DNA of 56,871 nucleotides, taken from NCBI GenBank assembly GCA_947591455.1, contig CANQDC010000001.1, forward strand, positions 1 to 56,871. The letters run 5' to 3'. The DNA comes from an uncultured Bacilli bacterium. Its GTDB lineage: Bacteria; Bacillota_I; Bacilli_A; RF39; UBA660. Of the stretch, positions 3,839-43,127 are shown one piece after another. The notes beneath the pieces were generated by a model. That model was not told the DNA's origin. It did no database searches and saw only the letters and a list, made by a program, of their open reading frames with translations. A program made the position numbers and the translations under genes. How positions within the stretch are numbered: the stretch's first letter is position 1; each line of letters starts with the position of its first letter.

Positions 3839-3864
3839 GAAAATGAAAAATAAATAGAAAAAAA

Positions 3865-8128: not shown

Positions 8129-8260
8129 TGTTTCTTCACCCCTCTTTTATAAAATATTTTCTTATAATATAGATTTTTTTGTATGAAGTCAAATTTTTTC
8201 GAAAAAATTCGACTCTTTTCTTAGAATAAGAAGAGTAATCTATTAAAATAGAGGTGGATT

Positions 8261-18628: not shown

Positions 18629-18651
18629 AGACCAAAATGGTCTTTTTTTTT
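18629..18651 (+). terminator. rho-independent terminator after the cotY/Z-like gene
   Basis: AGACCA (18629-18634) / TGGTCT (18638-18643) followed by a run of 8 T. Confidence 0.65.
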
Positions 18652-18687
18652 ATGCAGAAACAAGGAAAAGATAAATTTATGTTGTAT

Positions 18688-20678: not shown

Positions 20679-21030
20679 TATAAAGAAAGAATATAGGAGT
20701 GATGAGAAATATATGGCAGCAGTAAGAAGAGTGGAAGATTTATCAACAGATCCAAACTTTATAGGGTATTATGATGAAAAAGAAGCGATGCAACAAGATT
20801 TAGATGACATGTGGGAGACTGGATATGATGAAGGAGAAAAAAAGGGGCTTGAGCAAGGCCTAACGCAAGGTCTTAAACAAGGAATGAAGCAAGGCTTGGA
20901 ACGTGGTGCTCATGAAAAACAAATTGAAATAGCTAAGAAACTTATAGAAACAGATGGAATTGAAAAGGCAAGCTTAATTACTGGATTATCTATAGAAGAA
21001 CTACAAGAAATCAAAGATACTAATAAGTAA
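20647..21030 (+). CDS. stand-alone Rpn C-terminal-domain fragment (truncated third copy; possibly a pseudogene)
   Basis: Homologous only to the last 115 or so aa of copies 1 and 2. The track start is TTG with no clear RBS. An internal in-frame ATG is at about 20713. Confidence 0.45.
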   Translation: MLNITNLNEIDIKKEYRSDEKYMAAVRRVEDLSTDPNFIGYYDEKEAMQQDLDDMWETGYDEGEKKGLEQGLTQGLKQGMKQGLERGAHEKQIEIAKKLIETDGIEKASLITGLSIEELQEIKDTNK

Positions 21031-21077: not shown

Positions 21078-21965
21078 TTCATTATATAATCTATAAAGAG
21101 AAATAGAGGGTGGATTCAAAAAACGAATTGGATATTTATAAGTTCCTAAGCCATTTGTAATGTACATACTGATTTGTTTTTTATGATAATAATGTTTTTG
21201 ATATTTATTAATACCTTCTTGATTTAATAAGTATCCATAAAAAGGAATATTAATTAAACCATTTAATGTATGTCCAGCAAAAATAATATTTGGACGAATA
21301 TTATTTTCTAATAAAGTATCAAAAAGTACAGGTTCATGGCTTAACCAGATTTTAAAATATTCAGTATCATTTTCATTAGTTTGAATCGCTTTAGTAATAT
21401 CACATTCTTGCTCTAAAATAGAGGAAGTTCCAATAAATTGAATAGGTGTATTTCCCTTGTAATAAATAAGCTCATTGCTATTATCTAAGACAGTAAAGGA
21501 AGCATGCTGCATGATTTCTATATATTTGTCCTTATTGATATAATCAGAATTTCCGCAAACTGCATATTTATGAATAGAAGCTTGCAAATCGCTTAAAATA
21601 TTTTGAATCGAATCAAAATTTTGATCTGTATAATTTATAGAATCGTCAAATAAGTCTCCTGTATAAACAATGACATCTGGTTTTAATTCATTAATCTTTT
21701 TTACAATCCTTTTTAGCTCTTTATCATTAATTGTTTTGCCATAATGAATATCCGAAAAATGAACAATTTTAAACCCATTAAATTCTACAGGCAATTTTTT
21801 ATCTACGATTGCTTCTTCTTTTACAACAAGAATCTTTGGTTCAATCCAAAAGATATATACAAAAAAGAAAATAATTAGAAGTAAAAAAAACAATAAAACT
21901 GTTTTAAGAACTTTTTTAATTTTTGATTGTGTATTTATATTACTTTCATCCATAAGATCACCCAA
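21075..21965 (-). CDS. membrane-anchored metallophosphoesterase (YkuE/YaeI-like)
   Basis: N-terminal TM plus calcineurin-like motifs SDIHYG, GDLFDD, GNSDY and GHTLNG. Confidence 0.85.
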   Translation of the reverse strand: MGDLMDESNINTQSKIKKVLKTVLLFFLLLIIFFFVYIFWIEPKILVVKEEAIVDKKLPVEFNGFKIVHFSDIHYGKTINDKELKRIVKKINELKPDVIVYTGDLFDDSINYTDQNFDSIQNILSDLQASIHKYAVCGNSDYINKDKYIEIMQHASFTVLDNSNELIYYKGNTPIQFIGTSSILEQECDITKAIQTNENDTEYFKIWLSHEPVLFDTLLENNIRPNIIFAGHTLNGLINIPFYGYLLNQEGINKYQKHYYHKKQISMYITNGLGTYKYPIRFLNPPSISLYRLYNE

Positions 21966-22680
21966 TTAAAAAATAAGAAAATAAAATTAATAAAACAGAC
22001 AAAAAGTTGTGTATCATATGTGGAACAATAGAAGAAAAAATATTGTTTGTTTCATAGTAAGATTTAGCAAAGAAAAAACCTAAAGAACCATATGGAATAA
22101 TAAATAAAAATTCACTAGCATGAGCAAGTATATTTTGTATCGTAAAAGAATCAAAAGCTGTACTAACATGTAAAAAAGCAAATATAAATGCTGAAAAAAG
22201 AGCATAAGGAATTTTTTTAGTAAACGAAGATCGAAAACAAAAGCGAAATACAAGTTCTTCTAAAAAAGGACCAATGAGAATAATTGTTGGAAAAGCATAA
22301 AGCGGAAATTTTAAAATAGTTTCTCGAGTTGTTTGTTCATTAACAGCAATATTTCCAACAATTGAAGTAACAATTAAATTAGAAATAATCATTACAATAA
22401 TTCCATAGGCCCAATAAGTAAATCCTTTACTCAAAATTGGTTTAGGATTATGAATAAATTCTTTAAATTGTTTAAAAATTTCTTTTCTTACAATAAATAA
22501 AATGACTAAAAAAGTTCCCAAATAAACAGCTAAATAAGATAAATTAGAAATCCAAAAATTAGAACTTTCAATCCCATTTTTAAAAAAAAGAGCAAGAATA
22601 TTTGGACAGATTAAATAATAAAGAAAAAAGATAAATGCTCCAAAAGCAATACCTTTAAAAAACTTTTTTACTTTTTCCAT
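21958..22680 (-). CDS. CPBP-family intramembrane glutamic endopeptidase (CAAX protease-like)
   Basis: Multi-TM protein with motifs EELVFRFCFR, FAFLHV and HMIHNF. Confidence 0.8.
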   Translation of the reverse strand: MEKVKKFFKGIAFGAFIFFLYYLICPNILALFFKNGIESSNFWISNLSYLAVYLGTFLVILFIVRKEIFKQFKEFIHNPKPILSKGFTYWAYGIIVMIISNLIVTSIVGNIAVNEQTTRETILKFPLYAFPTIILIGPFLEELVFRFCFRSSFTKKIPYALFSAFIFAFLHVSTAFDSFTIQNILAHASEFLFIIPYGSLGFFFAKSYYETNNIFSSIVPHMIHNFLSVLLILFSYFLIG

Positions 22681-23129
22681 TATTTAATATACCCCAATGA
22701 TTGTAATCTCTCAATTATTTTTGTTTTAGATGCATATCCTACTAAACGATTTAAAGTAGTTTTTTCTTTCCCATCAATAAAGAAGAAAGTGGTAGGAGTA
22801 CCAGAAAAATTAACATATTTATTTAGTACTTCTTTATCAGAATCATTTAACTCCGTAATATTAATTACATTTGCTTTTAAATCATAATCAGCTAAAGTTC
22901 GATCAAGCTCAGGTAAATATTGTTTACAATGACTACATCCTGTTTGACTAACGACCAAAATAAAAGTTTCTTGATCACTTACTTTTTTTTCTAGATCAGC
23001 TACTTCAATATATTGAAGATTAGTAGAATAATCTTTACTAAAAGCAAAATGATAAACTAAAAAGATTCCAATCAAAACAATGATAGCTATTAGAATATAA
23101 AGTTTAAAATTCCGATTTTTATTTTTCAT
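22680..23129 (-). CDS. membrane-anchored thioredoxin-fold protein (CxxC thiol-disulfide oxidoreductase-like)
   Basis: N-terminal TM, active-site-like GCSHC, and a thioredoxin-like beta-alpha pattern with GTPTTFF (cis-Pro region). Confidence 0.7.
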   Translation of the reverse strand: MKNKNRNFKLYILIAIIVLIGIFLVYHFAFSKDYSTNLQYIEVADLEKKVSDQETFILVVSQTGCSHCKQYLPELDRTLADYDLKANVINITELNDSDKEVLNKYVNFSGTPTTFFFIDGKEKTTLNRLVGYASKTKIIERLQSLGYIK

Positions 23130-23242: not shown

Positions 23243-23974
23243 ATGAAAAAAAATGTTTTAGGTGTGATGCTAGCTTTATCATTATTATTACCAATAAATA
23301 TACAGGCAGAAAGTACTTGTAATTATAATGAACAAGCTGAGTTAAATAATATTGCAGCAAATGTGAAAGCAAATTATGAAAGTACTCAAGTATATGCTGG
23401 AAAAGCAGCAAATTCCGATGACTTGAGTGAAGAAGTGGATTTGTATAATTGGGCATTAAAAATTAATATTTTAAATGTAACAGAAGATATTTTTATAAAA
23501 GTAAAAGATAAAAATACAGGGGAAGAAAAATTATATTCTCCAAAAGAAGCAATAGATGGTATCATATCTTTTACGCACGAAGATATTAGTCAAACAGACA
23601 ATTTAACGATTGAAATATATGCAAATAAATATGATTGCGCTGGAGATCTACTTCAAAAAATTGAATTACTAATTCCACAATATAATCCATACTCAGATTA
23701 TGGAATATGTGATACATATACAGATTATTATTACTGTCAACAATTCATTACCGGAGAAAATATACCTGAAGAAGATTTCTGGTTGAAAGTAGAAGAAATG
23801 CAAGAACAAGAAGAAAAAGAACAGCAACAAGAAGAACAAGGCTTCTTTGTTAAAATAAAAAATTTTTATAAAGAGAATAAAGTAACAATTAATATACTAG
23901 GAAGTATAGTAGTAGTTGGAGGGGTAGTTACTACAGTGATACTAATTAAAAAAAGAAGGAGTAGAGTTTTATGA
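23243..23974 (+). CDS. secreted protein with a C-terminal membrane anchor (cluster gene 1)
   Basis: Signal peptide MKKNVLGVMLALSLLLPINIQAES, an E/Q-rich linker, and a C-terminal TM plus KKRRSRVL. It has an ATGA overlap with the next gene. Confidence 0.6.
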   Translation: MKKNVLGVMLALSLLLPINIQAESTCNYNEQAELNNIAANVKANYESTQVYAGKAANSDDLSEEVDLYNWALKINILNVTEDIFIKVKDKNTGEEKLYSPKEAIDGIISFTHEDISQTDNLTIEIYANKYDCAGDLLQKIELLIPQYNPYSDYGICDTYTDYYYCQQFITGENIPEEDFWLKVEEMQEQEEKEQQQEEQGFFVKIKNFYKENKVTINILGSIVVVGGVVTTVILIKKRRSRVL

Positions 23975-26877
23975 TAAAAAACAAATTTAAACTTTTAATT
24001 AGTATATCCTTACTTGGTATGTTATTTAATACCAATACGGTAAATGCCTTGAATGCAAGAGTTTGGGAGCCAGATGAAGGAGTTAACAACTCTGGTTTAA
24101 GATATAATTATCCTTCTACTGGATTAGCAGGTGATAAGGGTTATTTCTACTATAGTAGCCCAACGTTATATGTAAGATACGGTGGTAAAGAGTATCAAGC
24201 ATTTTGTACCGAGCCTGGAAAACATATGGCTACAAGTGGCTCAGGAGCTGATAATGCTACGTGTAAACCTATTTCTGATTCTAGACAAGCATTAGCAATG
24301 AATTATGTTATTAATAGCAATGCTAGTGATATAATTAAGGAACTAGCGGTCCGTATATTAGCAGCTGGATTAAATATAAGTTCAAAAGGATCGCCTACGT
24401 GTCCAAAATATGGTAGCATAGACAGTAAATATTATGCTCTATTAAATACCTATTACGATATTACTGGAGAAACAAGTAAGAAAAAAAATTCAGCTTATAA
24501 TATAACTGGGAACGAAAGTAACTTAAATGGTGCAAAAAACTTAGTATCGGAAGCATTAAAATATGCAGATCAACATAGTGGTAGCAGCTCAAGTTCATCA
24601 AGCTCATCAAGTAGTTCAAGTACTGTTAAAGAAAAATTAGCTCTTATTCAAGATTCGGCCACTTCAACAGCGGATAATTACACAGTTAAATATCAAGTGA
24701 GTACAATCGATGGAAGTAGTGTTGATGTTAATTTTAGATGTACAAATTGTACGATTTCGCCTCAAACTGTTACAGTTACAGGAAATTCTCAAATAATTAC
24801 TGTAAGTGTTACAAAGCCAAATTGTTCGTTTAAAATTGATGCTTATTATAATCCTTTTGGTAATAATAATGGCAACAACAATAATAATGAAAATCAATAT
24901 ACCGCTTTTCTTTGTACACAAGAAGGTGCAACATGCTTTCAAAAAACAATTGCTTTGATTAGTACTACAGAAGCTGGTGGTAATAGCACGGGTTCAGGTA
25001 CAGGACAAAGTACGTATGATCCAAATACACCAACTCAAACATTCAATAAAACTGTTCCTTCTTCAACTGGAGGAGATTATTACAATACTTATTGTCGAAC
25101 TGAATGTGATGATGGAGATGGAAAATCTCAAGTAAACATTCCAGAATATTGTGACAGTGATGAAGGCAAAGAAATGTCTATTAGTGGTCCTAAAAATGTA
25201 TATTGCGTAATGCGTTATTCAGATGAAGCCGGAAATTCATATCAAGATACAACACAAGTTTCTGCAACAAATAGGTATTGTTCAGTCTTTTGTAAAGAAG
25301 ATTATAATATGAGCCTTCCTGGAGCAACTTATGCAAATAGTGGTAGATACTTTAATTTAAAAAATACACGTGTTACAGGTACTCGTTCATGTTATATAAC
25401 AGGTGCAGCAGATACAAATGTCGATGGAATTGATTTAGCACAATTTAAAACAGATGTTATCAATGCACAAACGGCTCTTGTAGAAGCATATAATAGTTAT
25501 AATGAACAAAATTCATGTCGAAACAATTCAACATTTACTAGATATAATATTTCTTGTGATAATAATACTGGACAATGTTCAGTGTCAGCAACTTCAGCAA
25601 CATGCTTAACTACCACCAATGGTGGAGACATATCTAGTGTTAATTTTGCTAAATCAAATTTAAAATCAATTTTAAGTGAAATCTCAAGTTGCTATAATTG
25701 GACGAATGATTTCTGTTTTGACCCAAATATTGAATTTGAATATAGTGAACCATACAAAGATGTAAAATTTAGTGAAATTCCGAATACTAGAACCACGAAT
25801 GAAAATAATGCATCTGGTCGTGGATTAAATAGAAATGGTACAATTCAAAGCCCAATAACTAATGGTATTTCAGATGTTTCTTTTGCTAGCTGTAATGAAA
25901 ATGGATGTACTAATAATGGGGAAACTGCTAAAAATATTTCTACAACGATTACACATATGAGTAAAGTAAAAACGATTTCAGCAGAATATAACAATACCCA
26001 ATCCTTTGCTACAAATTATCCACATGGTAGTATTGAAGCAATACCTGAAAATAAACGTAATAATTTGAGAAATAACTATTCTTATTTAGGAACAGTATTC
26101 CCAACGGCTTTAAAAACAGAACGTGGAGTATATAATTGGACATTAAACTTTAAAGATATTGGCCAATATAATAATGAAAATAATTGTAAATTAGGACGTT
26201 TGAATAAAGTAGCAACAGCTTTGAATAAAGACTTAAAGGATAATATTGGTTATGTTTGTGTATATGTAGTCGATTGTCCTGAGTGTACATATGATTGTAA
26301 ATGTGATGATGACTATCCAGCAGGATATACTTGCTATAAAAGGGATCAAATGCATTGTGATATAGATTATAAGTGTGATCCAGCAACTGATCCAAATTGT
26401 CCACCACATGATGATGATTGTCCAGATTGTGATGTTTACTGTGCATCAACAGATGATTATTGCTTATTTGATGGCAAGAGTGTATATACTTATCGAACCA
26501 TTTCATTATCTAATATTAATCCAAATGGTCGTCAACTAGGAATTAACTGGACAAATGAAAAAGGGCAAACAACATTGGATGAAATTCAAAGCGAAAATGA
26601 AAATGTTTATAAAGAAGCAGAATATTCTTATACAATTACACCAACCCAAATGAAAAATATAAGAGATTTAAATGCTGAAAAAGGAACATATATTACAGAA
26701 GATTTGGATTTCCATTCACTATCAAAAAATGGAACGACATATGAAAATGCTTATGGAACAAGTTCATTCTTGGATAATACAAATAAAAAATATTTTACTC
26801 AAAATAAACGAAATACAGAATGGACTTTATGGACTGGAGATATAAATAACGAAGGCTCTGGACCATCATGGAAATAG
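23971..26877 (+). CDS. large secreted Cys-rich surface protein (candidate adhesin or pilus-associated protein)
   Basis: 968 aa with a signal peptide, a run of 13 Ser, an Asn-rich tract, many Cys throughout, and a Cys/Asp-dense module near aa 767-835. Confidence 0.65.
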   Translation: MIKNKFKLLISISLLGMLFNTNTVNALNARVWEPDEGVNNSGLRYNYPSTGLAGDKGYFYYSSPTLYVRYGGKEYQAFCTEPGKHMATSGSGADNATCKPISDSRQALAMNYVINSNASDIIKELAVRILAAGLNISSKGSPTCPKYGSIDSKYYALLNTYYDITGETSKKKNSAYNITGNESNLNGAKNLVSEALKYADQHSGSSSSSSSSSSSSSTVKEKLALIQDSATSTADNYTVKYQVSTIDGSSVDVNFRCTNCTISPQTVTVTGNSQIITVSVTKPNCSFKIDAYYNPFGNNNGNNNNNENQYTAFLCTQEGATCFQKTIALISTTEAGGNSTGSGTGQSTYDPNTPTQTFNKTVPSSTGGDYYNTYCRTECDDGDGKSQVNIPEYCDSDEGKEMSISGPKNVYCVMRYSDEAGNSYQDTTQVSATNRYCSVFCKEDYNMSLPGATYANSGRYFNLKNTRVTGTRSCYITGAADTNVDGIDLAQFKTDVINAQTALVEAYNSYNEQNSCRNNSTFTRYNISCDNNTGQCSVSATSATCLTTTNGGDISSVNFAKSNLKSILSEISSCYNWTNDFCFDPNIEFEYSEPYKDVKFSEIPNTRTTNENNASGRGLNRNGTIQSPITNGISDVSFASCNENGCTNNGETAKNISTTITHMSKVKTISAEYNNTQSFATNYPHGSIEAIPENKRNNLRNNYSYLGTVFPTALKTERGVYNWTLNFKDIGQYNNENNCKLGRLNKVATALNKDLKDNIGYVCVYVVDCPECTYDCKCDDDYPAGYTCYKRDQMHCDIDYKCDPATDPNCPPHDDDCPDCDVYCASTDDYCLFDGKSVYTYRTISLSNINPNGRQLGINWTNEKGQTTLDEIQSENENVYKEAEYSYTITPTQMKNIRDLNAEKGTYITEDLDFHSLSKNGTTYENAYGTSSFLDNTNKKYFTQNKRNTEWTLWTGDINNEGSGPSWK

Positions 26878-26894: not shown

Positions 26895-27302
26895 GTGAAA
26901 GAATCATATTGGGGTTATTGGTTGATTACTTTGGGGGTATTTGTAATTATTATCATGATGTTAATTTCTAATATTACAACCAAAAATACACAAGATTATT
27001 ATTTGATAAAAGAAGTATCAGAAGCCGCTATGGTCGATGCCATTAATTTAGGATACTATAGAGAATATGGTGAATTAAAAATGGATCGTGAAAAATATAT
27101 TGAATCCTTTTTAAGAAGATTTGCTGAAAATGAAAGCTTAAATACCTATCAAATTGATTTTTATGGTATTTATGAAGCACCACCAAAAGCTAGTGTGAAA
27201 GTAACAAGTAAAAGTGGAAGCTTTATAATTGCTGGGGATTCAACAAATTTTGATATAGTAAACAAATTAGATGCTATATTAGAAGTTGGCACAACAGAGT
27301 AA
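26895..27302 (+). CDS. TadE/pseudopilin-like small protein
   Basis: GTG start with RBS TGGGGGA. The N-terminus MKESYWGYWLITLGVFVIIIMML has the same architecture as the MREAIGGTW proteins at 31788 and 32311. Confidence 0.45.
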   Translation: MKESYWGYWLITLGVFVIIIMMLISNITTKNTQDYYLIKEVSEAAMVDAINLGYYREYGELKMDREKYIESFLRRFAENESLNTYQIDFYGIYEAPPKASVKVTSKSGSFIIAGDSTNFDIVNKLDAILEVGTTE

Positions 27303-27316
27303 ATGGAGGATAAAAA

Positions 27317-28150
27317 ATGGGAAATATTGTAACAACAATTAAAAGATTTTTAGGAAATAAAAATACAGTAACAATTATCGGGGTAATCTTAGGAATCCTA
27401 GTATTATATATAGGATATAATTATCGTGTAAAACAAGCCACGACCCCAATTAGTGTTCCTTATGCGAAAGAAGAAATTGCATCAAGAACATTAATCACAA
27501 GTGATATGATTGGATATCGTGAAATATCAAGTACAGTAGTAAACGAAAGTACAAATTTGATTACAAATGCCAATGATTTAATTAATAATTATGTTGCTTT
27601 TGGTACAACTATACCTGCAAATAGTATGTTTTACGAATCACAAATTTTAACATCAGATGAAATGCCTGATAGTGCCTTTGCTGATATTCCAGATGGCTAT
27701 ACAATTTATAGTTTAGGTGTAGATTTACATACCACATATGGAAATTCAATCTATCCTGGAAATTATATTGATTTATATTTCAAAGGGGTAGATGATACGG
27801 ACAAAATAATGTTTGGTAAATTAATTGAAAGTATTGAAGTTTTAGCCGTAAAAGATAGTGAAGGAAATCACGTATTTGAAACGACAGTAGAATCTCGTAC
27901 TCCAGCAGAACTGTTATTTGCTGTACCAAATGATATGTATGATTTATTAATGAAAGCTGGTTATATTAGTGGTTCATCTATTGAAATTATTCCAGTTCCT
28001 CGAAACGCTTCTTATAGTGCCAATCCTGGGGATACAGTTGTTTCAAGCGATTATATTAAAAATTTCATTCTCGCAAAAAGTGCAACAATTCCACAAAATG
28101 TAACAACTACAACGAATAATAATCAAACAGATAATACAAACGAACAATAA
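27317..28150 (+). CDS. CpaB/RcpC-like Flp pilus assembly protein
   Basis: N-terminal TM and a SAF-like segment (ISVPYAKEEIASRTLITSDMIGYREIS). This is followed by YTIYSLGVD...IYPGNYIDLYF...IEVLAVKD...ELLFAVPNDMYDLLMKAGYISG...EIIPVPRN, which matches the CpaB pattern. Confidence 0.7.
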   Translation: MGNIVTTIKRFLGNKNTVTIIGVILGILVLYIGYNYRVKQATTPISVPYAKEEIASRTLITSDMIGYREISSTVVNESTNLITNANDLINNYVAFGTTIPANSMFYESQILTSDEMPDSAFADIPDGYTIYSLGVDLHTTYGNSIYPGNYIDLYFKGVDDTDKIMFGKLIESIEVLAVKDSEGNHVFETTVESRTPAELLFAVPNDMYDLLMKAGYISGSSIEIIPVPRNASYSANPGDTVVSSDYIKNFILAKSATIPQNVTTTTNNNQTDNTNEQ

Positions 28151-28179
28151 GAAAAGAATCAAAAAGGGAGGGTGTCTTA

Positions 28180-29436
28180 GTGAATAATGATGCGATATTC
28201 TCTCAACTGGACTTCGGTCCTCTTGATGAGTTTTTAAAACTAGATGATGTAACCGATATTTCATATAGTAACGGTGGGCAAGTATGGTTAAAGACACTTT
28301 CACGAGGAGTATTTCAAGTTGAAAGGCCAAACATTAATAATGCTTTAATGGAAAAATTAGCCTTTCAATGTTCGAATGTAATGGGGAAGACCTTTAATAT
28401 GGCCCATCCTTTTTTAGATGCAGAATCAACAGAACTTCGTTTAAATTTTATTCATGAATCCATTGCCACAAATGGCATAGCGTGTTTAATTCGTAAAACA
28501 CCAGCTAAGATTCGTTTGAATCGCGAAAAATTAATTAATGAACAATATGTTCGCGAAGACTTACTTGATTTTTTGCTTGCATGTGTTCAAGGACATGCCA
28601 ATATCATTGTTAGTGGAGAAACCGGATCTGGTAAAACAGAACTTGTTAAATATTTAGCAAGTACAACGAAGGAAAATGAAAAAATTATTACAATTGAAGA
28701 TACATTAGAATTACATTTAGATCGAATATTTCCTCATCGTGATATTGTAGCTATGAAAACCAATAATGTAGCTTCTTATACCGACGTGTTAGTTACCTGT
28801 ATGCGGCAAAATCCTATATGGATTTTGTTATCAGAAGTACGTAGTGCCGAAGCCGTGCTTGCTGTTCGTAACTCAATTTCATCAGGGCACCACATTATTT
28901 CTACAATTCACGCGGATAAAGCAGCCAGTATACCAATGCGTATGTACAGTTTGCTTGAATCAAATTTAGATGTTGAACAATTTTTATCAACCATTCACCG
29001 TTATGTCCAAATTGGTATTTATGTCAAAGGCTATATGAGTAAAGAATTAGGACGTTTTCAAAGAGAAATTTTAGAAATCTGCGAATTTTATGTAGATGAT
29101 GATAATAAACCAAAATCGAATACAATTTTTCAAAAAACATTAGATGGGAAATTTACCTTAAATAATCCAACCAAAAATTTAAGAGATTATTTATCAATTC
29201 AGGGTGTCGTTTTACCAGAGGATATTTTTAGATCAAATGATTCAACTAGAAATGTATCTCCTACACCAAATAATTCAAATATACCAAATAATGTAAATAC
29301 CAATGTAGCTCAGGTGGCAAACCCACAACAGCCAATGAGTCCAAATATAAATGTTAATCCTCAGATGATGCAAAGAACAACAACAGTGACTCCTAATCAA
29401 ATGGGAACTATAAATAACTTAAATCAAACGGCTTAA
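28180..29436 (+). CDS. cpaF: CpaF/TadA-type (VirB11-superfamily) secretion ATPase
   Basis: Walker A GETGSGKTE, Asp box ITIEDTLEL, Walker B RQNPIWILLSEVRSAEA, His box GHHIISTIHA. GTG start with RBS AGGGAGGGTG. It carries an extra 68-aa N/P/Q-rich C-terminal tail. Confidence 0.85.
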   Translation: MNNDAIFSQLDFGPLDEFLKLDDVTDISYSNGGQVWLKTLSRGVFQVERPNINNALMEKLAFQCSNVMGKTFNMAHPFLDAESTELRLNFIHESIATNGIACLIRKTPAKIRLNREKLINEQYVREDLLDFLLACVQGHANIIVSGETGSGKTELVKYLASTTKENEKIITIEDTLELHLDRIFPHRDIVAMKTNNVASYTDVLVTCMRQNPIWILLSEVRSAEAVLAVRNSISSGHHIISTIHADKAASIPMRMYSLLESNLDVEQFLSTIHRYVQIGIYVKGYMSKELGRFQREILEICEFYVDDDNKPKSNTIFQKTLDGKFTLNNPTKNLRDYLSIQGVVLPEDIFRSNDSTRNVSPTPNNSNIPNNVNTNVAQVANPQQPMSPNINVNPQMMQRTTTVTPNQMGTINNLNQTA

Positions 29437-29485
29437 GTTAGAAAAAAATAGATATTCAAAAGAAATAAAGAGAGTAGGTGCTTTA

Positions 29486-30379
29486 GTGGAATTAATATTA
29501 TTATTAATTATAGCAATATATGTAATATCTTACCGTCAAAACAATGGGCAAAATGTATATAAATTTTTTATCACTCAAGTAAGTGATATATATGAGAAAT
29601 TTGCCCCTTACAGTTATAAAGAAGTTAGGCAAAAAGTAAAAGCTTTAGGACAAGATTTCTCAGCTAGAGAATACACGACACAAGTAATTATATTTGGAGT
29701 TGTAGCAGGAGGAATTTCTTACTTATATTTCTATAATATTATTATAGCTTTAATTTATGCTGGGATAGCAATTGCCTTTATACCCTACTTAACTTACTTA
29801 AGATATCAAAAAATATACAGTGAATTTATATTCGAACAAGTTCAAATTTATACAACCAATGTTATTATGGAATTTACAACAACCCAAAGTTTTGTTAAAT
29901 CTCTAGAAGGAGTTAGAGATTCTGGAATTTTGGAAGATCCAGTTTTACAAGATGTCAAGACCATGATTGAAATGTCTTATCAAAATGGTACGATTGATGA
30001 ATCAATTGAATTTTTCAATCAAAAATATCCTTATTATATGGTCAAAAATATGAATCAATTGTTCTTACAAATTACTAAAGAGGGTGCCAAAGATTCAGGA
30101 GAGGCTCTAGAAAATATGTCTCAAGATATTGATGCTTTAGTAGAAGGAGTATATCGTGATCAAGTCGATCGTAAAAACTTCCATAAGCGTTTCATTACCT
30201 TTGGGCTAGCCTTATTTTTACTCGTTATGGCTATGCAGTTCTTATTAGGAACCGATAGTTATATTGAACTATTAGATATTTGGTATGTTCAAATTATTTT
30301 ACATCTGATATTAATCATTAATAGTTATTTCTTAATTACTGGAGAAAAATACTATAATGAAGATTTGGGGGTAGAATAA
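29486..30379 (+). CDS. TadB-like (GspF/T2SSF-family) pilus platform membrane protein
   Basis: 297 aa with TM segments at the N-terminus, the middle and the C-terminus around a helical cytoplasmic domain. Its position is immediately after the ATPase. Confidence 0.55.
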   Translation: MELILLLIIAIYVISYRQNNGQNVYKFFITQVSDIYEKFAPYSYKEVRQKVKALGQDFSAREYTTQVIIFGVVAGGISYLYFYNIIIALIYAGIAIAFIPYLTYLRYQKIYSEFIFEQVQIYTTNVIMEFTTTQSFVKSLEGVRDSGILEDPVLQDVKTMIEMSYQNGTIDESIEFFNQKYPYYMVKNMNQLFLQITKEGAKDSGEALENMSQDIDALVEGVYRDQVDRKNFHKRFITFGLALFLLVMAMQFLLGTDSYIELLDIWYVQIILHLILIINSYFLITGEKYYNEDLGVE

Positions 30380-31167
30380 TGTCTATAGAAATATTTTTAA
30401 TTGGAATTATCATTTTATTTGTTATGAATTACACCGGGAGAATTAATGCAAATAAATTTATTGCAGATAATGAAGTTTACTTTCGAAAATTAAAAGAAGA
30501 CGATTGGGACTTCTATGTTAGAGCAAAATATGGCGATGGTGTAAATGCGGATATTTTATTTAATAAAAGAATTCGTAATGGATTAATTGGAATTATCGTT
30601 TTAGTTTTATGTTTTATTTCTAAATTAAATTATGTAACGCTTTTATTTTCGGTTTTAGGTGGGTTTGTAATTTTTAAACTAGATTATTTAAATATCAAAA
30701 AATACTATAAACAACATTTACATGAAATAGATGCAATGTTACCACATTATTTAAAAAGTTTAGAAATTTTGATTCAACACTATACAGTACCAGTTGCTAT
30801 TGGTAAATCTATAGAAGATGCTCCAGCAATATTTAAAGAAGGATTACAAGAATTAATTAATGAAATCAATTCTGGAAATGATAAAATTGATCCCTATGTC
30901 AATTTTGCTAAAGAATATCCAGTTCGTGATTCTATGCGAATGATGCGTTTATTATATCGTTTAAGTCTTGGTCGTCAAGAACATAAACAAGAACAATTAC
31001 TTGCTTTTTCCAAAACGATTTCCAATTTACAACAAAAAGCTCGTGATATTAAATATAAAGAACGTCTAGAAAAAATGGAATCAAAAACAATGAGTATGTT
31101 AATTACAACAGGTCTAGGAGTAATGATTTTATTAATATTCTCAGTTATAATGTTAATGGGTGTCTAA
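30379..31167 (+). CDS. TadC-like (GspF/T2SSF-family) pilus platform membrane protein
   Basis: 262 aa with the same topology as the previous gene and a TAATG overlap with it. The paired TadB/TadC arrangement is typical of Tad loci. Confidence 0.5.
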   Translation: MSIEIFLIGIIILFVMNYTGRINANKFIADNEVYFRKLKEDDWDFYVRAKYGDGVNADILFNKRIRNGLIGIIVLVLCFISKLNYVTLLFSVLGGFVIFKLDYLNIKKYYKQHLHEIDAMLPHYLKSLEILIQHYTVPVAIGKSIEDAPAIFKEGLQELINEINSGNDKIDPYVNFAKEYPVRDSMRMMRLLYRLSLGRQEHKQEQLLAFSKTISNLQQKARDIKYKERLEKMESKTMSMLITTGLGVMILLIFSVIMLMGV

Positions 31168-31182
31168 TTTTTTGTGAAAATA

Positions 31183-31211
31183 TTGATATTATTAAAAAAA
31201 AAAGTTATAAT
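31183..31211 (+). promoter_or_regulatory. internal sigma-A type promoter in front of the pilin genes
   Basis: TTGATA (31183-31188), a 17-nt spacer, then TATAAT (31206-31211). Confidence 0.55.
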
Positions 31212-31242
31212 AAAAAAGTAAGATAAAGGAGGTATAATTTAT

Positions 31243-31512
31243 ATGAAAGAAGCTACCGGAGAATTAAATATGACGGTTGTTACTGTAGTAGCTATTGCAG
31301 CTGTAGCAGCATTCTTCTATGCATTTGTATGGCCAAATATTAAAACATCAATTGCAGCACAATCTGTTTGTGCAAATGGACCTAATTACACAGATAAGGA
31401 TAATGGTATTGAATGTGGTTCAACAAATAGCAATGGACAATATACATGTAATTTTAAAACTGAAAAAAATGGTAGGACAACAACTCAACAAGTTACATGT
31501 AAAACAAAATAA
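31243..31512 (+). CDS. pilin-like protein 1 (short leader, hydrophobic helix, 4-Cys head)
   Basis: RBS AAGGAGG. MKEATGELNMTVVTVVAIAAVAAFFYAFVWP is followed by a small head with 4 Cys. It sits in the Flp-pilin position of a Tad locus. Confidence 0.65.
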   Translation: MKEATGELNMTVVTVVAIAAVAAFFYAFVWPNIKTSIAAQSVCANGPNYTDKDNGIECGSTNSNGQYTCNFKTEKNGRTTTQQVTCKTK

Positions 31513-31528
31513 TAAAAGGAGTTAATTT

Positions 31529-31771
31529 ATGAAAGAAGCCACAGGAGAATTGAATATGACTGTTGTAGTAGTTATAGCGGTAGGAGTCCTAGCGGCTTTT
31601 TTCTATACTACGATATGGCCATTAATAAAAAACACATATATTGCGTCAAATAAATGTAGTGATGCCGTATGTGATCCGAGTACTTTGCATGATGGTAGGG
31701 TTTCTTGCAAGTATTATGATAAAAATGGCCGTCAACAGGGAACTAATTTTGAATGTGTATGGAAAGGTTAA
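31529..31771 (+). CDS. pilin-like protein 2 (paralog)
   Basis: RBS AAGGAG. It has the identical first 12 residues, MKEATGELNMTV, then a hydrophobic helix and a divergent 4-Cys head. Confidence 0.65.
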   Translation: MKEATGELNMTVVVVIAVGVLAAFFYTTIWPLIKNTYIASNKCSDAVCDPSTLHDGRVSCKYYDKNGRQQGTNFECVWKG

Positions 31772-31787
31772 TTAGGGAGTGATATAG

Positions 31788-32297
31788 TTGAGAGAAGCAA
31801 TAGGTGGAACATGGTTATTTCAAATTGTTATTGTTTTTGTTTTGTTATTTACAGGTTTCATGTGTTTGACAATTAACCATACCAAAGCATTTAATGTTAA
31901 AAATAATATTATTAATACGATTGAAAGAGAAGAAGGAATAGATTTACAAAATCCAAAAAATGATCCAGCGATAAAAAAAATTGTTGAGTATTTAAAAGAA
32001 ACGGCTTACCGTACTACAGGAGATTGTCCTACTGGATATGTAGGTATTAATAGAGATGGAGACATCGATAGTAAAAATGCTGCTTTTTGTTTAGAGCAAA
32101 AAACGTTTGATTCGCGTCCGAGCGATCAATATCCAGAGATGAACTATTACCGTGTAGTTGTATTTTATCAACTGGATTTACCTATATTTAATGAAGTTTT
32201 TAACTTTAGAGTTACAGGGGATACAAAAATATTGAATAAAAATAATATGAGATCAGAGCCTAAGTATAAAGGCGATATTATGATTATGAGTGCTTAA
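31788..32297 (+). CDS. TadE-like minor pilin/pseudopilin 1
   Basis: TTG start with RBS AGGGAG. MREAIGGTWLFQIVIVFVLLF is followed by a globular domain of about 140 aa. Confidence 0.5.
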   Translation: MREAIGGTWLFQIVIVFVLLFTGFMCLTINHTKAFNVKNNIINTIEREEGIDLQNPKNDPAIKKIVEYLKETAYRTTGDCPTGYVGINRDGDIDSKNAAFCLEQKTFDSRPSDQYPEMNYYRVVVFYQLDLPIFNEVFNFRVTGDTKILNKNNMRSEPKYKGDIMIMSA

Positions 32298-32310
32298 AGT
32301 AGGTGAGTAA

Positions 32311-32787
32311 ATGAGAGAAGCAATTGGTGGAACATGGATTTTACAATTAGTTATTGTATTTATGCTTTTATTTGTCGCTTTTTTAGCATTATCACTAAAT
32401 TATAGTAAGGCGTTTCAAATTAAAAATGAAATGCTTACGATGATTGAAAAAAAAGAAGGCGTGACTTCAGATACACTTACACTAATGAATAATTATTTAA
32501 AAAATAGTGGGTATCGTGTTCAAAAAAATTGTCCGATGGGAAGTTATGGAGTATCAGATTTGAATCGAAATACAATTTCTCTAGCTACGAATGGTGGTCA
32601 ATATTATTATTGTATTACAAAAGTGGCTGCTCCATCTACTTTACATCGTAAAAAAGTCTATTATAAAATTGAAAACTTTTTTTATTTCAATTTACCTATT
32701 ATTGGAGATATAGTAAAGTTTACCATTAATGGAACAACAAATGATATAGCTATACCAGCAGATAATTTAAAAGCAATTTCAGAATAA
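32311..32787 (+). CDS. TadE-like minor pilin/pseudopilin 2
   Basis: MREAIGGTWILQLVIVFMLLF. It is a paralog of the preceding gene. Confidence 0.5.
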   Translation: MREAIGGTWILQLVIVFMLLFVAFLALSLNYSKAFQIKNEMLTMIEKKEGVTSDTLTLMNNYLKNSGYRVQKNCPMGSYGVSDLNRNTISLATNGGQYYYCITKVAAPSTLHRKKVYYKIENFFYFNLPIIGDIVKFTINGTTNDIAIPADNLKAISE

Positions 32788-32802: not shown

Positions 32803-33807
32803 ATGAATGTTATTGTATCAAATAAATATCAATCTTTACTTGCCACATTAGATATTGATATTATCAAAAGTATTAATGGTGAATTTGAGGTTGAAGATTT
32901 AGTAAGTCAATTTACTAATTTTTATTTTAATAAAATGATATTAGATATAACAGCAATAAAAAATTATCAAGATATATCTACCATTCAAACATTGTCTGTA
33001 AACATGGATGTAAGTAATATCATTCTTTTATTAGATGATTCTGAAGTTGTCAATTCACCACGATATTTATCTTCTTTAGTATCTATGGGGATTTATAATT
33101 TTACCCGAAATATTGATGCTATTAAATTTTTGATCGATAATCCTAATTCTTATAAAGATGTGGCGCAATATCATCAATTAAATGCTGTAAGTGATGGGTC
33201 ATCGGCTTCAACGAATTCAACAGTAAATATTAGTAAATTAGGGCTTCGAGTAATTGGGATAAAAAATGTAACCGAACATGCTGGATCTACAACATTAACC
33301 TATTTATTAAAAAAACATTTAGAAAAACAATATACTTGTATAGCAGTAGAAGTAGATGAACATGACTTTATATATTTAAATGATAAAGAACTAAAAACCA
33401 CTTCATCACTCGATTTACCAGCTTTTATAGCTACTCATAGTGACGTTGAAGTAATATTAGTCGATTTAAACGATCGGGGCAGTATAAATAGTTGTACAGA
33501 AGTGATTTATTTAATAGAACCTGGGTTAATTAAATTAAATAAATTAATCCGCAAAGATAAACGTACTTTTGAAAAATTAAAAGATAAAAAAATTGTTTTA
33601 AATCGAAGTGTGTTAAATGAAAAAGATGTAAAAGATTTTGAATATGAATCGAGAAGCAAAGTATTTTTTAATATTCCTTACTTAGACGATAAATTAGATC
33701 ATCATAAAATATTGAATCAATTTTTAATTAAATTAGGGTTTGTTCGTTTTGAAGAATCAAATAACGATTCAAAAAATAGTAAACTATTTAACATTTTTAA
33801 GACATAA
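32803..33807 (+). CDS. TadZ/CpaE-like protein (receiver-like N-domain + ParA/MinD-like domain with a degenerate P-loop)
   Basis: The C-terminal half follows the MinD/ParA pattern: RVIGIKNVTEHAGSTTLTYLL...IAVEVD...VILVDLND...VIYLIEP...IVLNRS...NIPYLDD. The KGGxGK(S/T) Walker A is replaced by NVTEHAGSTT. Confidence 0.5.
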   Translation: MNVIVSNKYQSLLATLDIDIIKSINGEFEVEDLVSQFTNFYFNKMILDITAIKNYQDISTIQTLSVNMDVSNIILLLDDSEVVNSPRYLSSLVSMGIYNFTRNIDAIKFLIDNPNSYKDVAQYHQLNAVSDGSSASTNSTVNISKLGLRVIGIKNVTEHAGSTTLTYLLKKHLEKQYTCIAVEVDEHDFIYLNDKELKTTSSLDLPAFIATHSDVEVILVDLNDRGSINSCTEVIYLIEPGLIKLNKLIRKDKRTFEKLKDKKIVLNRSVLNEKDVKDFEYESRSKVFFNIPYLDDKLDHHKILNQFLIKLGFVRFEESNNDSKNSKLFNIFKT

Positions 33808-33871: not shown

Positions 33872-34240
33872 ATGGATTTATTTTTAACAGGAGCTGTTGA
33901 TTTTTGTAAAAATACAGCAAATATTTGGCAAATTGTTGGATATGTTCTATTAGTTTTTAAAGTTGTAATCCCTATTTTATTAATTGTATTCGGAATGCTT
34001 GATTTAGGTAAAGCAGTTATTGCTAGTAAATCAGACGAAGTAAAAAAAGCTGCTACGTCTTTAGCGTTTAGAGCAGTAGGGGGCGTTGCTATCTTCTTGA
34101 TACCAACAATTATTTCTTTAATTATGGGATTTATATCTGATTTCCAAACTTCAGGGGCCAAAGATGATTTTGAAGTTTGTAGAAAATGTATTACAAGACC
34201 AAATACTGAATGTAAGAATGCAGCAGAGGCTTGGAAGTAA
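33872..34240 (+). CDS. VirB2/TrbC-like two-helix protein (candidate T4SS pilin), short form
   Basis: 122 aa with two hydrophobic helices separated by a charged loop (DLGKAVIASKSDEVKKAATSLAFR), and a Cys-containing tail CRKCITRPNTEC. It is monocistronic, with its own promoter and terminator. Confidence 0.5.
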   Translation: MDLFLTGAVDFCKNTANIWQIVGYVLLVFKVVIPILLIVFGMLDLGKAVIASKSDEVKKAATSLAFRAVGGVAIFLIPTIISLIMGFISDFQTSGAKDDFEVCRKCITRPNTECKNAAEAWK

Positions 34241-35484: not shown

Positions 35485-36600
35485 ATGAAAAAATTTTTGT
35501 GTTTTGTTTTGACGGTAGCTTGGTTGGGAGTAAATACAACTGTATATGCTAAAACAACTCCAAATGGAGTAAATATAGAAGATTATGATGCCAATGCTAG
35601 TTATACAAGTCTATATTGCTATTATAGTAATAATGTATATGTATCCATTCAAGAAACAGATCATTTAGAAGTATTACCAGAAGCTAGTGACACTCGTTAT
35701 TTAAAACTTCCTTTTGTCAATTATGATTATGCTGAAATGCGAGCATGGAATTTTTTAAATGAAAATGATGAATGGGATTGTCCTTTATATGCGCAAACAG
35801 ACAGTTCAAGATCCAAAATTATTAGTTTTTCCAATCAAGTAGCACCAAATTCTTATCCGTTGAATAAAAATAAAAGTAATTGTTTAGGAAAAGCTGCGAT
35901 TTATCAAGAATCCTCAAACACGTATACTTGTTCTTATAGTGGAAATAGTGGTTCTTTAAAAGTCGAAGGATCTGGAAATAAATGTACCGTAACCTATCCT
36001 GATGGGTCCACCCAAAATATAACGAATGGTGTTTGTAGCATGACTTCGAAAGATAGTTGTCCTGATTTGTACTATAATAAATCTACAAAAGAATTAAAAT
36101 GGGCAACCTATGACTATGCAAAGTATTTTGAAGAAAATAATAAAAATAATTATGATATGACTATGTATGATATGATTTGTAAAGATAATCAAAATATCGA
36201 TTATTTATGTAATGGGACCTGTGAGTTTCCTGCCAATCAAAATATTAATTGTAGTAAAATAGAACAAACAATTTACCAAGGAGAATTATGTTATCAACCA
36301 GGAGTAGCTAAATCATTTCGCTTTTTTGGCTATCTATTATTTATAGCAAAAGTAATTATCCCTATAATACTAATTGCCACAGGTTCAATGGATTTTGCTA
36401 AAGCACTTACATCATCCAATCAAGATGCGCTAACAAAATCAACTCGTCGTTTTGCTTTACGGATTGTTACGGGAGTAGTCGTTTTTTTACTACCAACGAT
36501 CATTTATTTTTTCTTCAATCTGATTCCTACCGATGATTCTGCTCATAAAAATTGCAGTACCTGTTTATTCCGCCCAAATCAATGTAATATTTCATCTTAA
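35485..36600 (+). CDS. secreted Cys-rich protein with a C-terminal VirB2-like two-helix module
   Basis: Signal peptide MKKFLCFVLTVAWLGVNTTVYA and a Cys-rich ectodomain of about 270 aa. The C-terminal module is homologous to the 33872 protein and ends with CSTCLFRPNQC. Confidence 0.6.
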   Translation: MKKFLCFVLTVAWLGVNTTVYAKTTPNGVNIEDYDANASYTSLYCYYSNNVYVSIQETDHLEVLPEASDTRYLKLPFVNYDYAEMRAWNFLNENDEWDCPLYAQTDSSRSKIISFSNQVAPNSYPLNKNKSNCLGKAAIYQESSNTYTCSYSGNSGSLKVEGSGNKCTVTYPDGSTQNITNGVCSMTSKDSCPDLYYNKSTKELKWATYDYAKYFEENNKNNYDMTMYDMICKDNQNIDYLCNGTCEFPANQNINCSKIEQTIYQGELCYQPGVAKSFRFFGYLLFIAKVIIPIILIATGSMDFAKALTSSNQDALTKSTRRFALRIVTGVVVFLLPTIIYFFFNLIPTDDSAHKNCSTCLFRPNQCNISS

Positions 36601-36703: not shown

Positions 36704-37795
36704 ATGAAGAAAAAAATAATATTTTTAATATATATATTTATGCTTTTTAGTTGCTATGGAGTTTCTGCCAAAACATTAGAAAATACATGTGTTTATGAAG
36801 CATCATATGAAAAAAAAGAGGAGAATAAAAAAATTACAATCACATGTAAATTTTACGATAATAATACTTATGACAAATGTGATATAGGAACCACTTTTAA
36901 GCAATCCATTTCCAATTGGAGTTCAATGCCTAAAGCAGAAGACAATATGAAAAGTTGGTATGAGAAAAATCATAAATGTTTTCCATATTTCGTTTTTATG
37001 GATAAAGGAACTTTATTTGATAAATATGAAATCTATGCGGCGGATACTTTAACACGTGCAAATTCTTTGAAAACAGAACAAGGAGATACATGGGATTATC
37101 ACACAGCAATAGCTACGGAACATAGTCTTTATGAAAAAGAAGATAAAACAAAAGAGCCAACAGACAAAATAAATTCTTATATTGAAACTTTGAATGATAT
37201 AGAAAATAATTTTGGTTTAAAAGATTGTGTAACGAACGGTAAAATAGAAGTAAATATTAAAAAAAATAATTATAAAGTTTGCCAAAAAAAAGTTGAAGCG
37301 ATGTATGAACAAATAAAAGAATATGATCAATATACAGAAGAGCAAATCAAAAATGGAACTTTTAAGGAAGAGGATCCGATTATAACCCAATATCGTGAGG
37401 CCGTTTCCAAAGCTCGCGGAAGTGTGAACGAAACGTTAGATGAAAATATGTCTCAAACTCAAACGGATGAGAAAATTAATGTAACCGCTTCTGAAAATAA
37501 TAATTTGACAACCAGTGATATTAATTGTAATAATATTTTTTCCGGTAATTTTGGTAAATATTTAAAATTGATTTTATCTTTTATTCGCTTCCTTGTACCA
37601 ATTATTATTCTTGGTCTAGCTATTTTAGATTTTATAAAAGCAACCTCTGCTCAAGATGAAACAGAAATGAAAAAAGCTTCAACCAAATTGGTTCAAAGAA
37701 TGATTATTGGAGTGATTATATTTTTACTTCCCACTCTGTTAGAAGTAATATTAAATTTGGCAGATATCCCATATGGAACTTGTGGTATTAAATAG
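36704..37795 (+). CDS. secreted protein with a C-terminal VirB2-like two-helix module
   Basis: Signal peptide MKKKIIFLIYIFMLFSCYGVSA and an ectodomain of about 270 aa. The C-terminal module LVPIIILGLAILDFIKATSAQDETEMKKASTKLVQRMIIGVIIFLLPTLL is homologous to those at 33872 and 35485. Confidence 0.6.
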   Translation: MKKKIIFLIYIFMLFSCYGVSAKTLENTCVYEASYEKKEENKKITITCKFYDNNTYDKCDIGTTFKQSISNWSSMPKAEDNMKSWYEKNHKCFPYFVFMDKGTLFDKYEIYAADTLTRANSLKTEQGDTWDYHTAIATEHSLYEKEDKTKEPTDKINSYIETLNDIENNFGLKDCVTNGKIEVNIKKNNYKVCQKKVEAMYEQIKEYDQYTEEQIKNGTFKEEDPIITQYREAVSKARGSVNETLDENMSQTQTDEKINVTASENNNLTTSDINCNNIFSGNFGKYLKLILSFIRFLVPIIILGLAILDFIKATSAQDETEMKKASTKLVQRMIIGVIIFLLPTLLEVILNLADIPYGTCGIK

Positions 37796-39874: not shown

Positions 39875-39882
39875 AGGATGAA

Positions 39883-40440
39883 ATGATGAAAATAAGGAAA
39901 AAAATTCAAGATTGGGCGACAGGAAATTATATCAATTTTAAACAAGAAAACGACGTATATGAACAGATAATAACCAAAATACAAGCAATAATGAATTATT
40001 TAGATGTCTATGTTCAAAACATTTCATTACAAAAAGAACAAATAACCGAGGGAACGCTTTTAGAAAAAATAGATACTTTAAAAGCAAATATAGAGTTTCA
40101 AAAAATTCGATTAAAAAAAAGTACCCAAAAAGAAGAACAGCAAAAAATATATCAAGAATTGCAAAAATTACAACAAGAATGGGAAGAACTTATCATTCAA
40201 ATTAAAAATGATCTCTTACAAAATGCCTATTTATTAGAAATTCAAAAAAATGTTTATGAAATGAATGGCCTGATTTATCAAAATGCTTTTTTAGAAACAT
40301 TGCAACCCTTTTTAGAAAAAGATATGATAAATAAAAAGTGGAATGTAAACCAGCTAAATGATCTTAGAAATTCTTTAGCCCAAAAGCGAATGAAAATATT
40401 GCCTTATTTAATAGAAATGGAAGATATTCGAAAGAAATAA
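39883..40440 (+). CDS. coiled-coil protein, function unknown
   Basis: 185 aa, Q/E/K/L-rich heptad-like sequence, no TM. Confidence 0.5.
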   Translation: MMKIRKKIQDWATGNYINFKQENDVYEQIITKIQAIMNYLDVYVQNISLQKEQITEGTLLEKIDTLKANIEFQKIRLKKSTQKEEQQKIYQELQKLQQEWEELIIQIKNDLLQNAYLLEIQKNVYEMNGLIYQNAFLETLQPFLEKDMINKKWNVNQLNDLRNSLAQKRMKILPYLIEMEDIRKK

Positions 40441-40456
40441 AAAGGAGGAAGAAAAA

Positions 40457-43102: not shown

Positions 43103-43127
43103 TTAAAGTGTAAGTAGGTGGATTTTT

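Follow-up and report, generated by a model that had tools for sequence, protein, structure and literature searches.

A putative Tad-like type IV filament locus with a conserved pilin-like start in uncultured gut Bacilli

Related filament and secretion systems

The described systems closest to the locus considered here are the Tad/Flp (type IVc) pili, the Com pseudopilus, a computationally predicted operon of gut Clostridia, and a block of genes on plasmids of the pLS20 family and of the pMG1/pHT type that has been named after its VirB11-like ATPase. The locus itself is an operon on contig CANQDC010000001.1 (assembly GCA_947591455.1) of an uncultured Bacilli bacterium, a stretch of 56.9 kb (56,871 nucleotides, ~29% GC) that was analysed as a whole and is called the window below. 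An earlier note on this DNA had pointed out that five small proteins of the locus, encoded from positions 26895, 31243, 31529, 31788 and 32311, share a start of the form M-[KR]-E-[AS], followed by one or two residues and Gly, ahead of a hydrophobic helix. Rather probably, these five are anchored in the membrane as pilin-type parts of a Tad-like type IV filament machine, which is uncharacterised and common among uncultured gut Bacilli of low GC content.

[quoted passage not shown] The locus resembles the Tad/Flp systems in its CpaF/TadA-type ATPase, its separate single-domain TadB- and TadC-like proteins, its CpaB-like protein and a possible TadZ-like ParA protein, and also in the presence of putative small major pilins and two larger minor pilins in one operon. 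In contrast to Tad/Flp systems, it has no G/xxxxEY motif, no Flp_Fap or TadE match and no TadV peptidase, its pilins carry a small disulfide-type head that Flp lacks, it has DUF5411 and a large adhesin among its constant components, and its platform proteins are too divergent for the Pfam T2SSF model.

The Com pseudopilus is likewise a type IV filament of monoderm bacteria with short, neutral leaders of 5–6 residues and a minimal machine of ATPase and platform. The leader of Bacillus subtilis ComGC, MNEKG, is comparable in length to the MKEATG of the small pilins described below and has the same net charge. The locus differs from Com in that it has no G/FTLxE motif, an ATPase far below the cut-off of the ComGA model (75.5 bits, cut-off 300), a split platform, and CpaB-like and DUF5411 parts.

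An operon encoding CpaF, PilC/GspF, DUF5411 and internalin-like proteins was predicted computationally in gut Clostridia (Roseburia, Ruminococcus and Eubacterium) by Miller et al. in 2022 (PMC9523054). It was put forward there as an uncharacterised system related to secretion and shares with the present locus the ATPase, the platform, the DUF5411 protein and the large surface protein; it, too, was noted to lack other recognisable pilus parts, and the section of the paper devoted to it mentions no MKEATGE pilins, minor pilins or link to a T4SS (PMC9523054). Literature searches on Tad pili, Gram-positive conjugation, DUF5411, DUF4320, RF39 and pLS20 pilins yielded no description of the present pilins or of their leader, the 2022 prediction being the one relevant paper. 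In the literature covered, the core operon had been flagged, but not its pilins and leader.

The plasmid block shows the same gene order as the locus. In pLS20 it comprises genes 34–41, which have been tabulated as the Tie adhesin (34), an N-terminally anchored protein of 126 residues (36), 'VirB11' (37), membrane proteins (38, 39), an N-terminally anchored protein of 120 residues (40) and a hydrophobic protein of 47 residues (41), followed by VirD4, VirB6 and VirB4 (PMC8557374). The likeness in order includes a VirB2-like protein before VirD4, and the ATPase of the window is 31–33% identical to the 'CpaF/VirB11' proteins encoded on Enterococcus plasmid pZB18, on plasmids from Priestia and Bacillus and in the pLS20 family. 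The 122-residue protein of pZB18 has a weak DUF5411 match, and the module on the Priestia koreensis plasmid also encodes DUF5411 and SAF/CpaB proteins. The block differs from the locus in that profile similarity is weak (hhalign 12–17% for TadB/C and 69% for the 120-residue protein of pZB18, the counterpart of p40) and in that p40 of pLS20 and the 128-residue Priestia protein match DUF4320, whereas the window proteins do not. Owing to this weak similarity of the other parts, homology of the whole plasmid block to the operon is likely but unproven. In tblastn searches of 72,556 plasmids with the DUF5411 protein, a small pilin and a minor pilin no match was found, and only the ATPase retrieved plasmid relatives.

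The tiny hydrophobic proteins of pZB18 (region 8011–8163) and of a pLS20-family plasmid have a conserved start of their own, MLDQN.DR..W.IGAV, and in the Bacillus plasmid of the pLS20 family the gene is tandemly duplicated (region 3577–3720 and 3747–3890). This tiny protein may be the pilin counterpart in the plasmid branch. The literature assigns the ATPase of the pLS20 block to the T4SS as VirB11 (PMC8557374); the comparison suggests that what the block encodes may not be a T4SS ATPase with unexplained neighbours but a pseudopilus of the Tad-like sort, and if so it would change the view of mating-pair formation in Gram-positive bacteria.

The shared start and the pilin-like families

The five ORFs and their N-termini are all present on the plus strand where the earlier note had placed them, and each start codon (ATG, GTG or TTG) follows a Shine-Dalgarno site of the GGAG/GGGG type 6–10 nt upstream. 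ATG stands at the same start position in 65 of 75 minor-pilin-like and 61 of 69 DUF5411 homologues, and a Shine-Dalgarno-like site is found in 143 of 144, therefore the N-termini are not artefacts of ORF calling. Relatives of the ATPase occur in more than 546 stretches of a species-representative genome collection, and the counts from genome loci given here rest on the best 80 of them. In these 80 related loci, a start M[KR]E[AS] opens 144 of the 226 members of the three families and only two of 3,882 other ORFs, neither of which has the full motif including Gly. The shared start is thus confirmed to lie far beyond chance, and the leader is not restricted to the paralogues of one operon but is kept in homologous loci, including, for the small pilin and the minor-pilin-like proteins, a second clade.

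The best 80 loci stem from metagenome-assembled genomes (MAGs) that carry the labels Bacilli, Tenericutes, 'Mycoplasma sp. CAG:776' or 'Clostridium sp. CAG:609'. The ATPase search reached only close relatives (at least 75% identity), and the second clade was found through divergent DUF5411 proteins in metagenomes, which are ~45% identical to the DUF5411 protein of the window. The 80 genome loci and 80 metagenome loci form a set of 160 related loci, and gene order is the same in these 160 loci of two clades. The carriers are abundant, uncultured members of animal and human gut communities with reduced genomes, and the locus is present in hundreds of assemblies.

The strongest conservation is found in the small pilins. 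Pilin 1 (31243..31512, 89 residues) consists of the leader MKEATG, a hydrophobic helix and a variable head with four Cys; pilin 2 (31529..31771, 80 residues) is its paralogue, and the first 13 residues of the two are identical, while the leader codons differ at synonymous sites. The six-residue leader is followed by ~24 mainly hydrophobic residues. In the best 80 loci the small pilins start with MKEA[TS]GELN almost without exception, and a database search returned 1,894 clusters of the small protein; among the best 120 of these (49–78% identity), 118 start with MKEATGE, none has a Pfam domain, and the source names are only 'hypothetical protein'. MKEATGE(L/V)(N/S) is nearly invariant across the two divergent clades, the second of which keeps MKEATGE[VL][SN]MTV in the pilin despite the DUF5411 start MKWSFAS. 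Mean entropy is 0.12 bit at positions 1–9 (MKEATGELN), 1.18 bit in the hydrophobic helix and 2.2 bit in the head, and the alignment consists of an invariant N-terminal stretch of 31 residues ending in Trp-Pro and a hypervariable head in which Cys residues are conserved. Gly occupies position 6 in 64 of 64 sequences by one count and in 75 of 76 by another, the remaining one having Ala, which is the sole replacement found. All four synonymous codons are used at each of Ala4, Thr5, Gly6 and Thr11, which indicates selection on the peptide and not on the DNA. An AlphaFold model built on the family alignment (predicted local distance difference test, pLDDT, 84) consists of a coil (1–9), a helix (10–43) and a three-stranded sheet. 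The two small proteins are likely to be the main filament subunits.

The two following genes encode the minor-pilin-like proteins 1 (31788..32297, 169 residues) and 2 (32311..32787, 158 residues), which both start with MREAIGGTW and are paralogues with 35% identity; the assignment of the first draws on its translation, homologues and AlphaFold model. The leader MREAIG(G) precedes a hydrophobic segment of ~22 residues. The same start was found in 559 clusters of the MREAIGG family, and the second-clade proteins start with MR[ED][AS][FV]GG. Position 6 is Gly in 61 of 76 members, Ser in 10 and Glu in five. The AlphaFold model of protein 1 (pLDDT 83.6, predicted template modelling score 0.73) has helices at 5–47 and 60–71 and a four-stranded sheet. 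In profile comparison the similarity between the small and the larger family is confined to the first ~27 residues, as in type IV pilin families, and both models predict a lollipop topology in which a long N-terminal helix carries a small beta-sheet. It is proposed that the MREAIGG proteins are minor, priming or tip-type pilins.

The fifth protein stands apart. The product of 26895..27302, which starts with MKESYWGYW, matches Pfam PF17424 (DUF5411) with E = 1.2e-55 and 187.5 bits (cut-off 30) and is the only one of the five with a match to that family. Gly occupies position 7 in 65 of 77 DUF5411 proteins, whereas a whole clade starts with MKWSFAS in place of MKES.WG. The family has 589 representative clusters, many with long C-terminal extensions; most homologues are 200–700 residues long, with variable extensions after a domain of ~130 residues, and the window protein is a short form. 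Since MKESYWG is not hydrophilic, contains Tyr-Trp and is absent from a whole clade, DUF5411 probably has no cleavage site, and its MKES.WG start is most likely lineage-specific and simply the beginning of the membrane anchor. Among the five, DUF5411 alone is also retained in minimal loci, which encode the adhesin, DUF5411, CpaB, ATPase, TadB and TadC proteins and have neither pilin cassette nor T4SS. This retention, together with the clade-specific motif, sets DUF5411 apart from the four others, which are regarded as an accessory pilin cassette that travels with the ParA-like gene; DUF5411 appears to be an older core part of the machine, anchored at its N-terminus, and its pilin-like status is unproven. 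The idea of one motif of equal weight in all five proteins was therefore not upheld, as an invariant Gly is confined to the small pilins and the residue is dispensable in part of the minor family, and the resemblance of the DUF5411 start, with Tyr-Trp in its putative leader, is clade-specific. In minimal loci, genes that by eye look like housekeeping genes (AddAB-, RimM/TrmD- and ribosomal-protein-like) directly follow the core.

Possible leader processing and alternative readings

A class III signal consists of a hydrophilic leader ending in Gly or Ala and 20–25 mainly hydrophobic residues, with Glu5 frequent but not obligatory (PMC10191384). The proposal of a prepilin-type signal holds in part, as the small pilins and the MREAIGG proteins fit this general definition, while DUF5411 is doubtful and probably does not. 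The leaders do not match the Flp G/xxxxEY, the Com/type IVa G/FTLxE or the archaeal [KR]G motif, as had been stated before, and no curated pilin model matches them; residue −2 is Thr or Ile, and not the Lys or Arg of the archaeal motif. The restriction of position 6 of the small pilins to Gly or Ala is what a prepilin peptidase site predicts, given that Ala is the only residue besides Gly allowed at −1 (PMC10191384).

In the proposed mechanism, prepilins would insert with the leader on the cytoplasmic side, and an A24 prepilin peptidase encoded outside the locus would cut the leader off behind Gly6 (in the minor proteins, behind Gly6 or Gly7). The ATPase and platform would then pull the subunits out of the membrane and build from them, as a stack, a short pilus or pseudopilus that crosses the wall, and this filament might display or push out the upstream Cys-rich adhesin and/or aid cell-to-cell contact for the adjacent T4SS. 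Leader cleavage is inferred here from the sequence pattern.

Several observations weigh against a pilin machine of this kind. None of the five proteins matches N_methyl, Flp_Fap or TadE (Pfam at E <= 1, NCBIfam at E <= 0.1), and the archaeal Pilin_N model reaches only E = 0.056 and 14.8 bits (cut-off 25.2). There is no Glu at +5, where the small pilins have Thr11, with Glu at +1, and the minor proteins have Gln12 at +5 or +6. Some members of the minor family carry Ser or Glu in place of the Gly. Foldseek comparison of both AlphaFold models with the PDB gave nothing significant, the best pilin match being 3jc8_Pa (E = 0.48), and PDB sequence and profile searches with the pilin and minor alignments returned nothing meaningful. 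In about one in four of the first 80 loci, DUF5411 and the ATPase–platform core are present and small pilins are completely missing, which implies that the core machine can exist without these pilins. In addition, no motif of the GxGDxK type was found among the membrane-like ORFs when the 160 related loci were scanned together with as much as 10 kb of sequence to either side, where the contig allowed.

The cluster indeed encodes no recognisable peptidase of the A24, TadV, CpaA or PilD kind, as judged by Pfam scans of the window ORFs and a motif scan. Peptidase_A24 was not among the best 25 of the 46 Pfam families listed for the flanking ORFs, and G-x-[GAHS]-D-x-K is absent from all six frames of the contig. 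In itself this absence is no anomaly. Many pilus systems encode their prepilin peptidase outside the pilus locus, and in B. subtilis the gene for the peptidase ComC lies apart from the pilin operon. A peptidase hidden in TadB or TadC was considered and rejected, since it is the soluble domains that are conserved, and the membrane segments show no conserved Asp motif. The upstream genes of ~170 residues in the second clade were likewise rejected as TadV-like peptidases, as their products are not polytopic and have no GxGDxK-type motif; by eye, their translations resemble housekeeping proteins and look TrmL-like (methyltransferase), QueH-like and thioredoxin-like.

The main alternative is that the N-termini stay uncleaved, so that the proteins would be bitopic membrane proteins whose MKEATGE tail serves as a cytoplasmic docking peptide for the ATPase and platform or as an assembly motif, and no prepilin peptidase would be needed. 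The missing peptidase in the contig and in the 160 loci speaks for it, as does the fact that conservation runs beyond the Gly to E7, L8 and N9, which a cleavage site alone does not need; the plasmid modules (pZB18, Priestia and the downstream part of the pLS20-family module) also have no annotated A24 peptidase in the regions retrieved, and their N-termini, for example MLDQN.DR, are of other kinds that lack the Gly. The alternative is nevertheless somewhat unlikely, because it leaves the Gly-to-Ala-only pattern at position 6 unaccounted for, subunits that leave the membrane would have to drag an uncleaved charged tail across it, and processing is required in all characterised type IV filaments (PMC10191384). 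Cleavage by a peptidase outside the A24 family appears improbable. One candidate is a CPBP-family intramembrane protease (Rce1-like Pfam match, 4.6e-13) encoded upstream on the other strand (21958–22680), whose gene adjoins the operon in 24 of the 80 related loci and also occurs in the transfer region of pZB18, the carrier of a related ATPase module. It is, however, absent from many loci with other neighbours, including the whole second clade, and its divergence (~39% identity) is like that of the housekeeping flanks, which makes its position look like mere synteny of an ordinary chromosomal stretch. Pilin processing is not known for any CPBP enzyme.

Two further readings dispense with the class III signal altogether. 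If the hydrophobic segment were a Sec-type signal peptide cut by signal peptidase I, the products would be secreted Cys-rich peptides and not pilins, and residues 37–40 of pilin 1 (Ile-Ala-Ala-Gln, after the helix) could pass as an AxA site. This site is not conserved in homologues and was rejected; moreover, conservation is much higher in the N-terminal 31 residues than in the remainder, the opposite of what Sec signal peptides show, and AlphaFold predicts one continuous helix (10–43) packed on the sheet, which makes this explanation highly improbable. It is barely credible that the M-K/R-E-A/S start arose by chance or from a bias in translation initiation that comes with an AT-rich genome. 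Lys (AAA) is frequent at codon 2 in low-GC Firmicutes, and the loss of the motif from DUF5411 in another clade would fit such an origin, but the start is rare in other ORFs of the same loci and its amino acids are fixed while synonymous codons vary freely, and for the pilin and minor families the chance reading is effectively refuted.

The reading preferred here is thus that of pilin-type components matured by a peptidase encoded elsewhere. A bolder version is unlikely: the locus would represent an undescribed, distinct type IV filament branch of gut monoderms that have a wall, with its own MKEATGE signature, maturation independent of A24 enzymes (uncleaved or by another enzyme) and a chromosomal link to a relaxase-less T4SS of the mycoplasma integrative and conjugative element (ICE) type with a VirB2-like array. 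If the small proteins are true pilins, they make up a type IV filament family with a defined processing signature that current pilin finders and curated models have missed. If maturation independent of A24 were true, it would be an exception to the rule that every type IV filament needs an A24 peptidase.

Machine parts and neighbouring genes

The remaining parts of the machine are encoded on the same strand. The secretion ATPase of the CpaF/TadA–VirB11 type (28180..29436), the predicted motor, matches Pfam T2SSE above the cut-off (6e-27), in line with the extension ATPases of type IV filaments (PilB/GspE/TadA family); among relatives of solved structure the best is CpaF (7.6e-18), with VirB11 at 4e-16. 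The putative platform is encoded by two adjacent genes for polytopic proteins, each with one conserved soluble domain, as in the split platform of Tad systems. The TadB-like protein (29486..30379, 297 residues), whose conserved domain is cytoplasmic, and the TadC-like protein (30379..31167, 262 residues) have no direct Pfam match and no mutual similarity detectable with hhalign. The TadB-like protein aligns with a P. koreensis plasmid protein annotated as T2SS F family (hhalign 96%), which itself falls just under the 25.2-bit cut-off of Pfam T2SSF (3.4e-05, 24.2 bits), and the TadC-like protein aligns with the Priestia protein at the TadC position (hhalign 97.1%). The bitopic CpaB/RcpC-like protein with a SAF domain (27317..28150) matches Pfam RcpC (1e-05) and TIGR03177 (6e-07) below the cut-off of each, and aligns with the SAF-domain protein of the Priestia plasmid module (hhalign 99.7%). 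Together, the ATPase, the platform split in two and the CpaB-like protein support a Tad-like machine. The ParA-like product of 32803..33807, possibly a degenerate ParA/MinD protein, is tentatively TadZ-like; its CbiA match is weak (0.062) and no PDB relative was found, and its gene co-occurs with the pilin and minor genes in both clades.

The median identity of the ATPase across the 80 loci is 81%, and TadB and TadC are ~70% identical. The ATPase is ~81% identical between genomes whose neighbouring housekeeping genes share only ~40%. Flanking synteny, which involves FtsW, metallophosphoesterase, CPBP and thioredoxin-like genes, is seen in 12–33 of the 80 MAG loci at ~40–50% identity, and in the window the flanks carry housekeeping genes that include tRNA synthetases, FtsW/RodA, MurJ and BacA (Pfam scans). 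From these comparisons the locus appears to belong to the chromosome and to be either under unusual constraint or the product of a recent exchange.

The first operon gene (23243..23974, plus strand) encodes a surface protein of 243 residues, which by its translation starts with a signal peptide and is anchored in the membrane at its C-terminus; it has no match in Pfam or NCBIfam and is kept at the same operon position in 66 of 80 loci. It is followed by a secreted protein of 968 residues (23971..26877, plus strand), rich in Cys, Ser and Asn, with an N-terminus that resembles a signal peptide. It contains 14 consecutive Ser and a tract rich in Asn, and its C-terminal part is dense in Cys-x-x-Cys and Asp-Cys repeats. 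A large variable protein occupies this position in all loci and is the part of the operon that varies most between them; its positional counterparts are adhesins that are Ig-like on the Priestia plasmid, SpaA-like on pZB18, and Tie on pLS20. The 968-residue protein is probably an adhesin or cargo.

Divergent from the operon and adjoining it, 22680..23129 on the minus strand encodes a membrane-anchored thioredoxin-like CxxC protein, with a CSHC motif in its translation and Thioredoxin_2 among the Pfam matches of the flanks. The same arrangement recurs in both clades of related loci. The Cys-rich adhesin, the product of the first gene and the pilin heads suggest a dedicated disulfide helper, and the thioredoxin-like protein is probably such a helper for disulfide formation in Cys-rich exported parts.

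Downstream of the operon, the T4SS part (37811–48117) is of the mycoplasma-ICE type, with a VirB6-like protein that matches MMCAP2_0566/Mbov_0396; further parts are a PrgI/TcpE-like protein, VirB4, an NlpC/P60–CHAP hydrolase and VirD4. VirB4 seems to be split into the overlapping ORFs 40758–41321 and 41318–43102, and the same split is found in related loci. Neither a relaxase nor an integrase was recognised anywhere in the contig. The products of 33872–34240, 35485–36600 and 36704–37795 have in common a C-terminal helix-loop-helix membrane module (BLASTP 3e-20 and 4e-13) of VirB2/TrbC-like topology, and thus form an array of three, two of which have large N-terminal extracellular domains; none matches Pfam or NCBIfam. 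A comparable VirB2-like array has been reported in T4SS loci of Patescibacteria (PMC12102498). On the bolder reading given above, the arrangement of pilus and T4SS would resemble the one reported for Patescibacteria and would hint at a role in cell-to-cell interaction rather than in plasmid transfer.

Further upstream lie two long, near-identical paralogous ORFs (18577–19596 and 19754–20653), and a shorter one (20647–21030) repeats their C-terminal part. The first of them matches Pfam PDDEXK_2 (Rpn-type nuclease). The antisense ORFs at 18577–21030 are near-identical as well, which indicates a recent local duplication.

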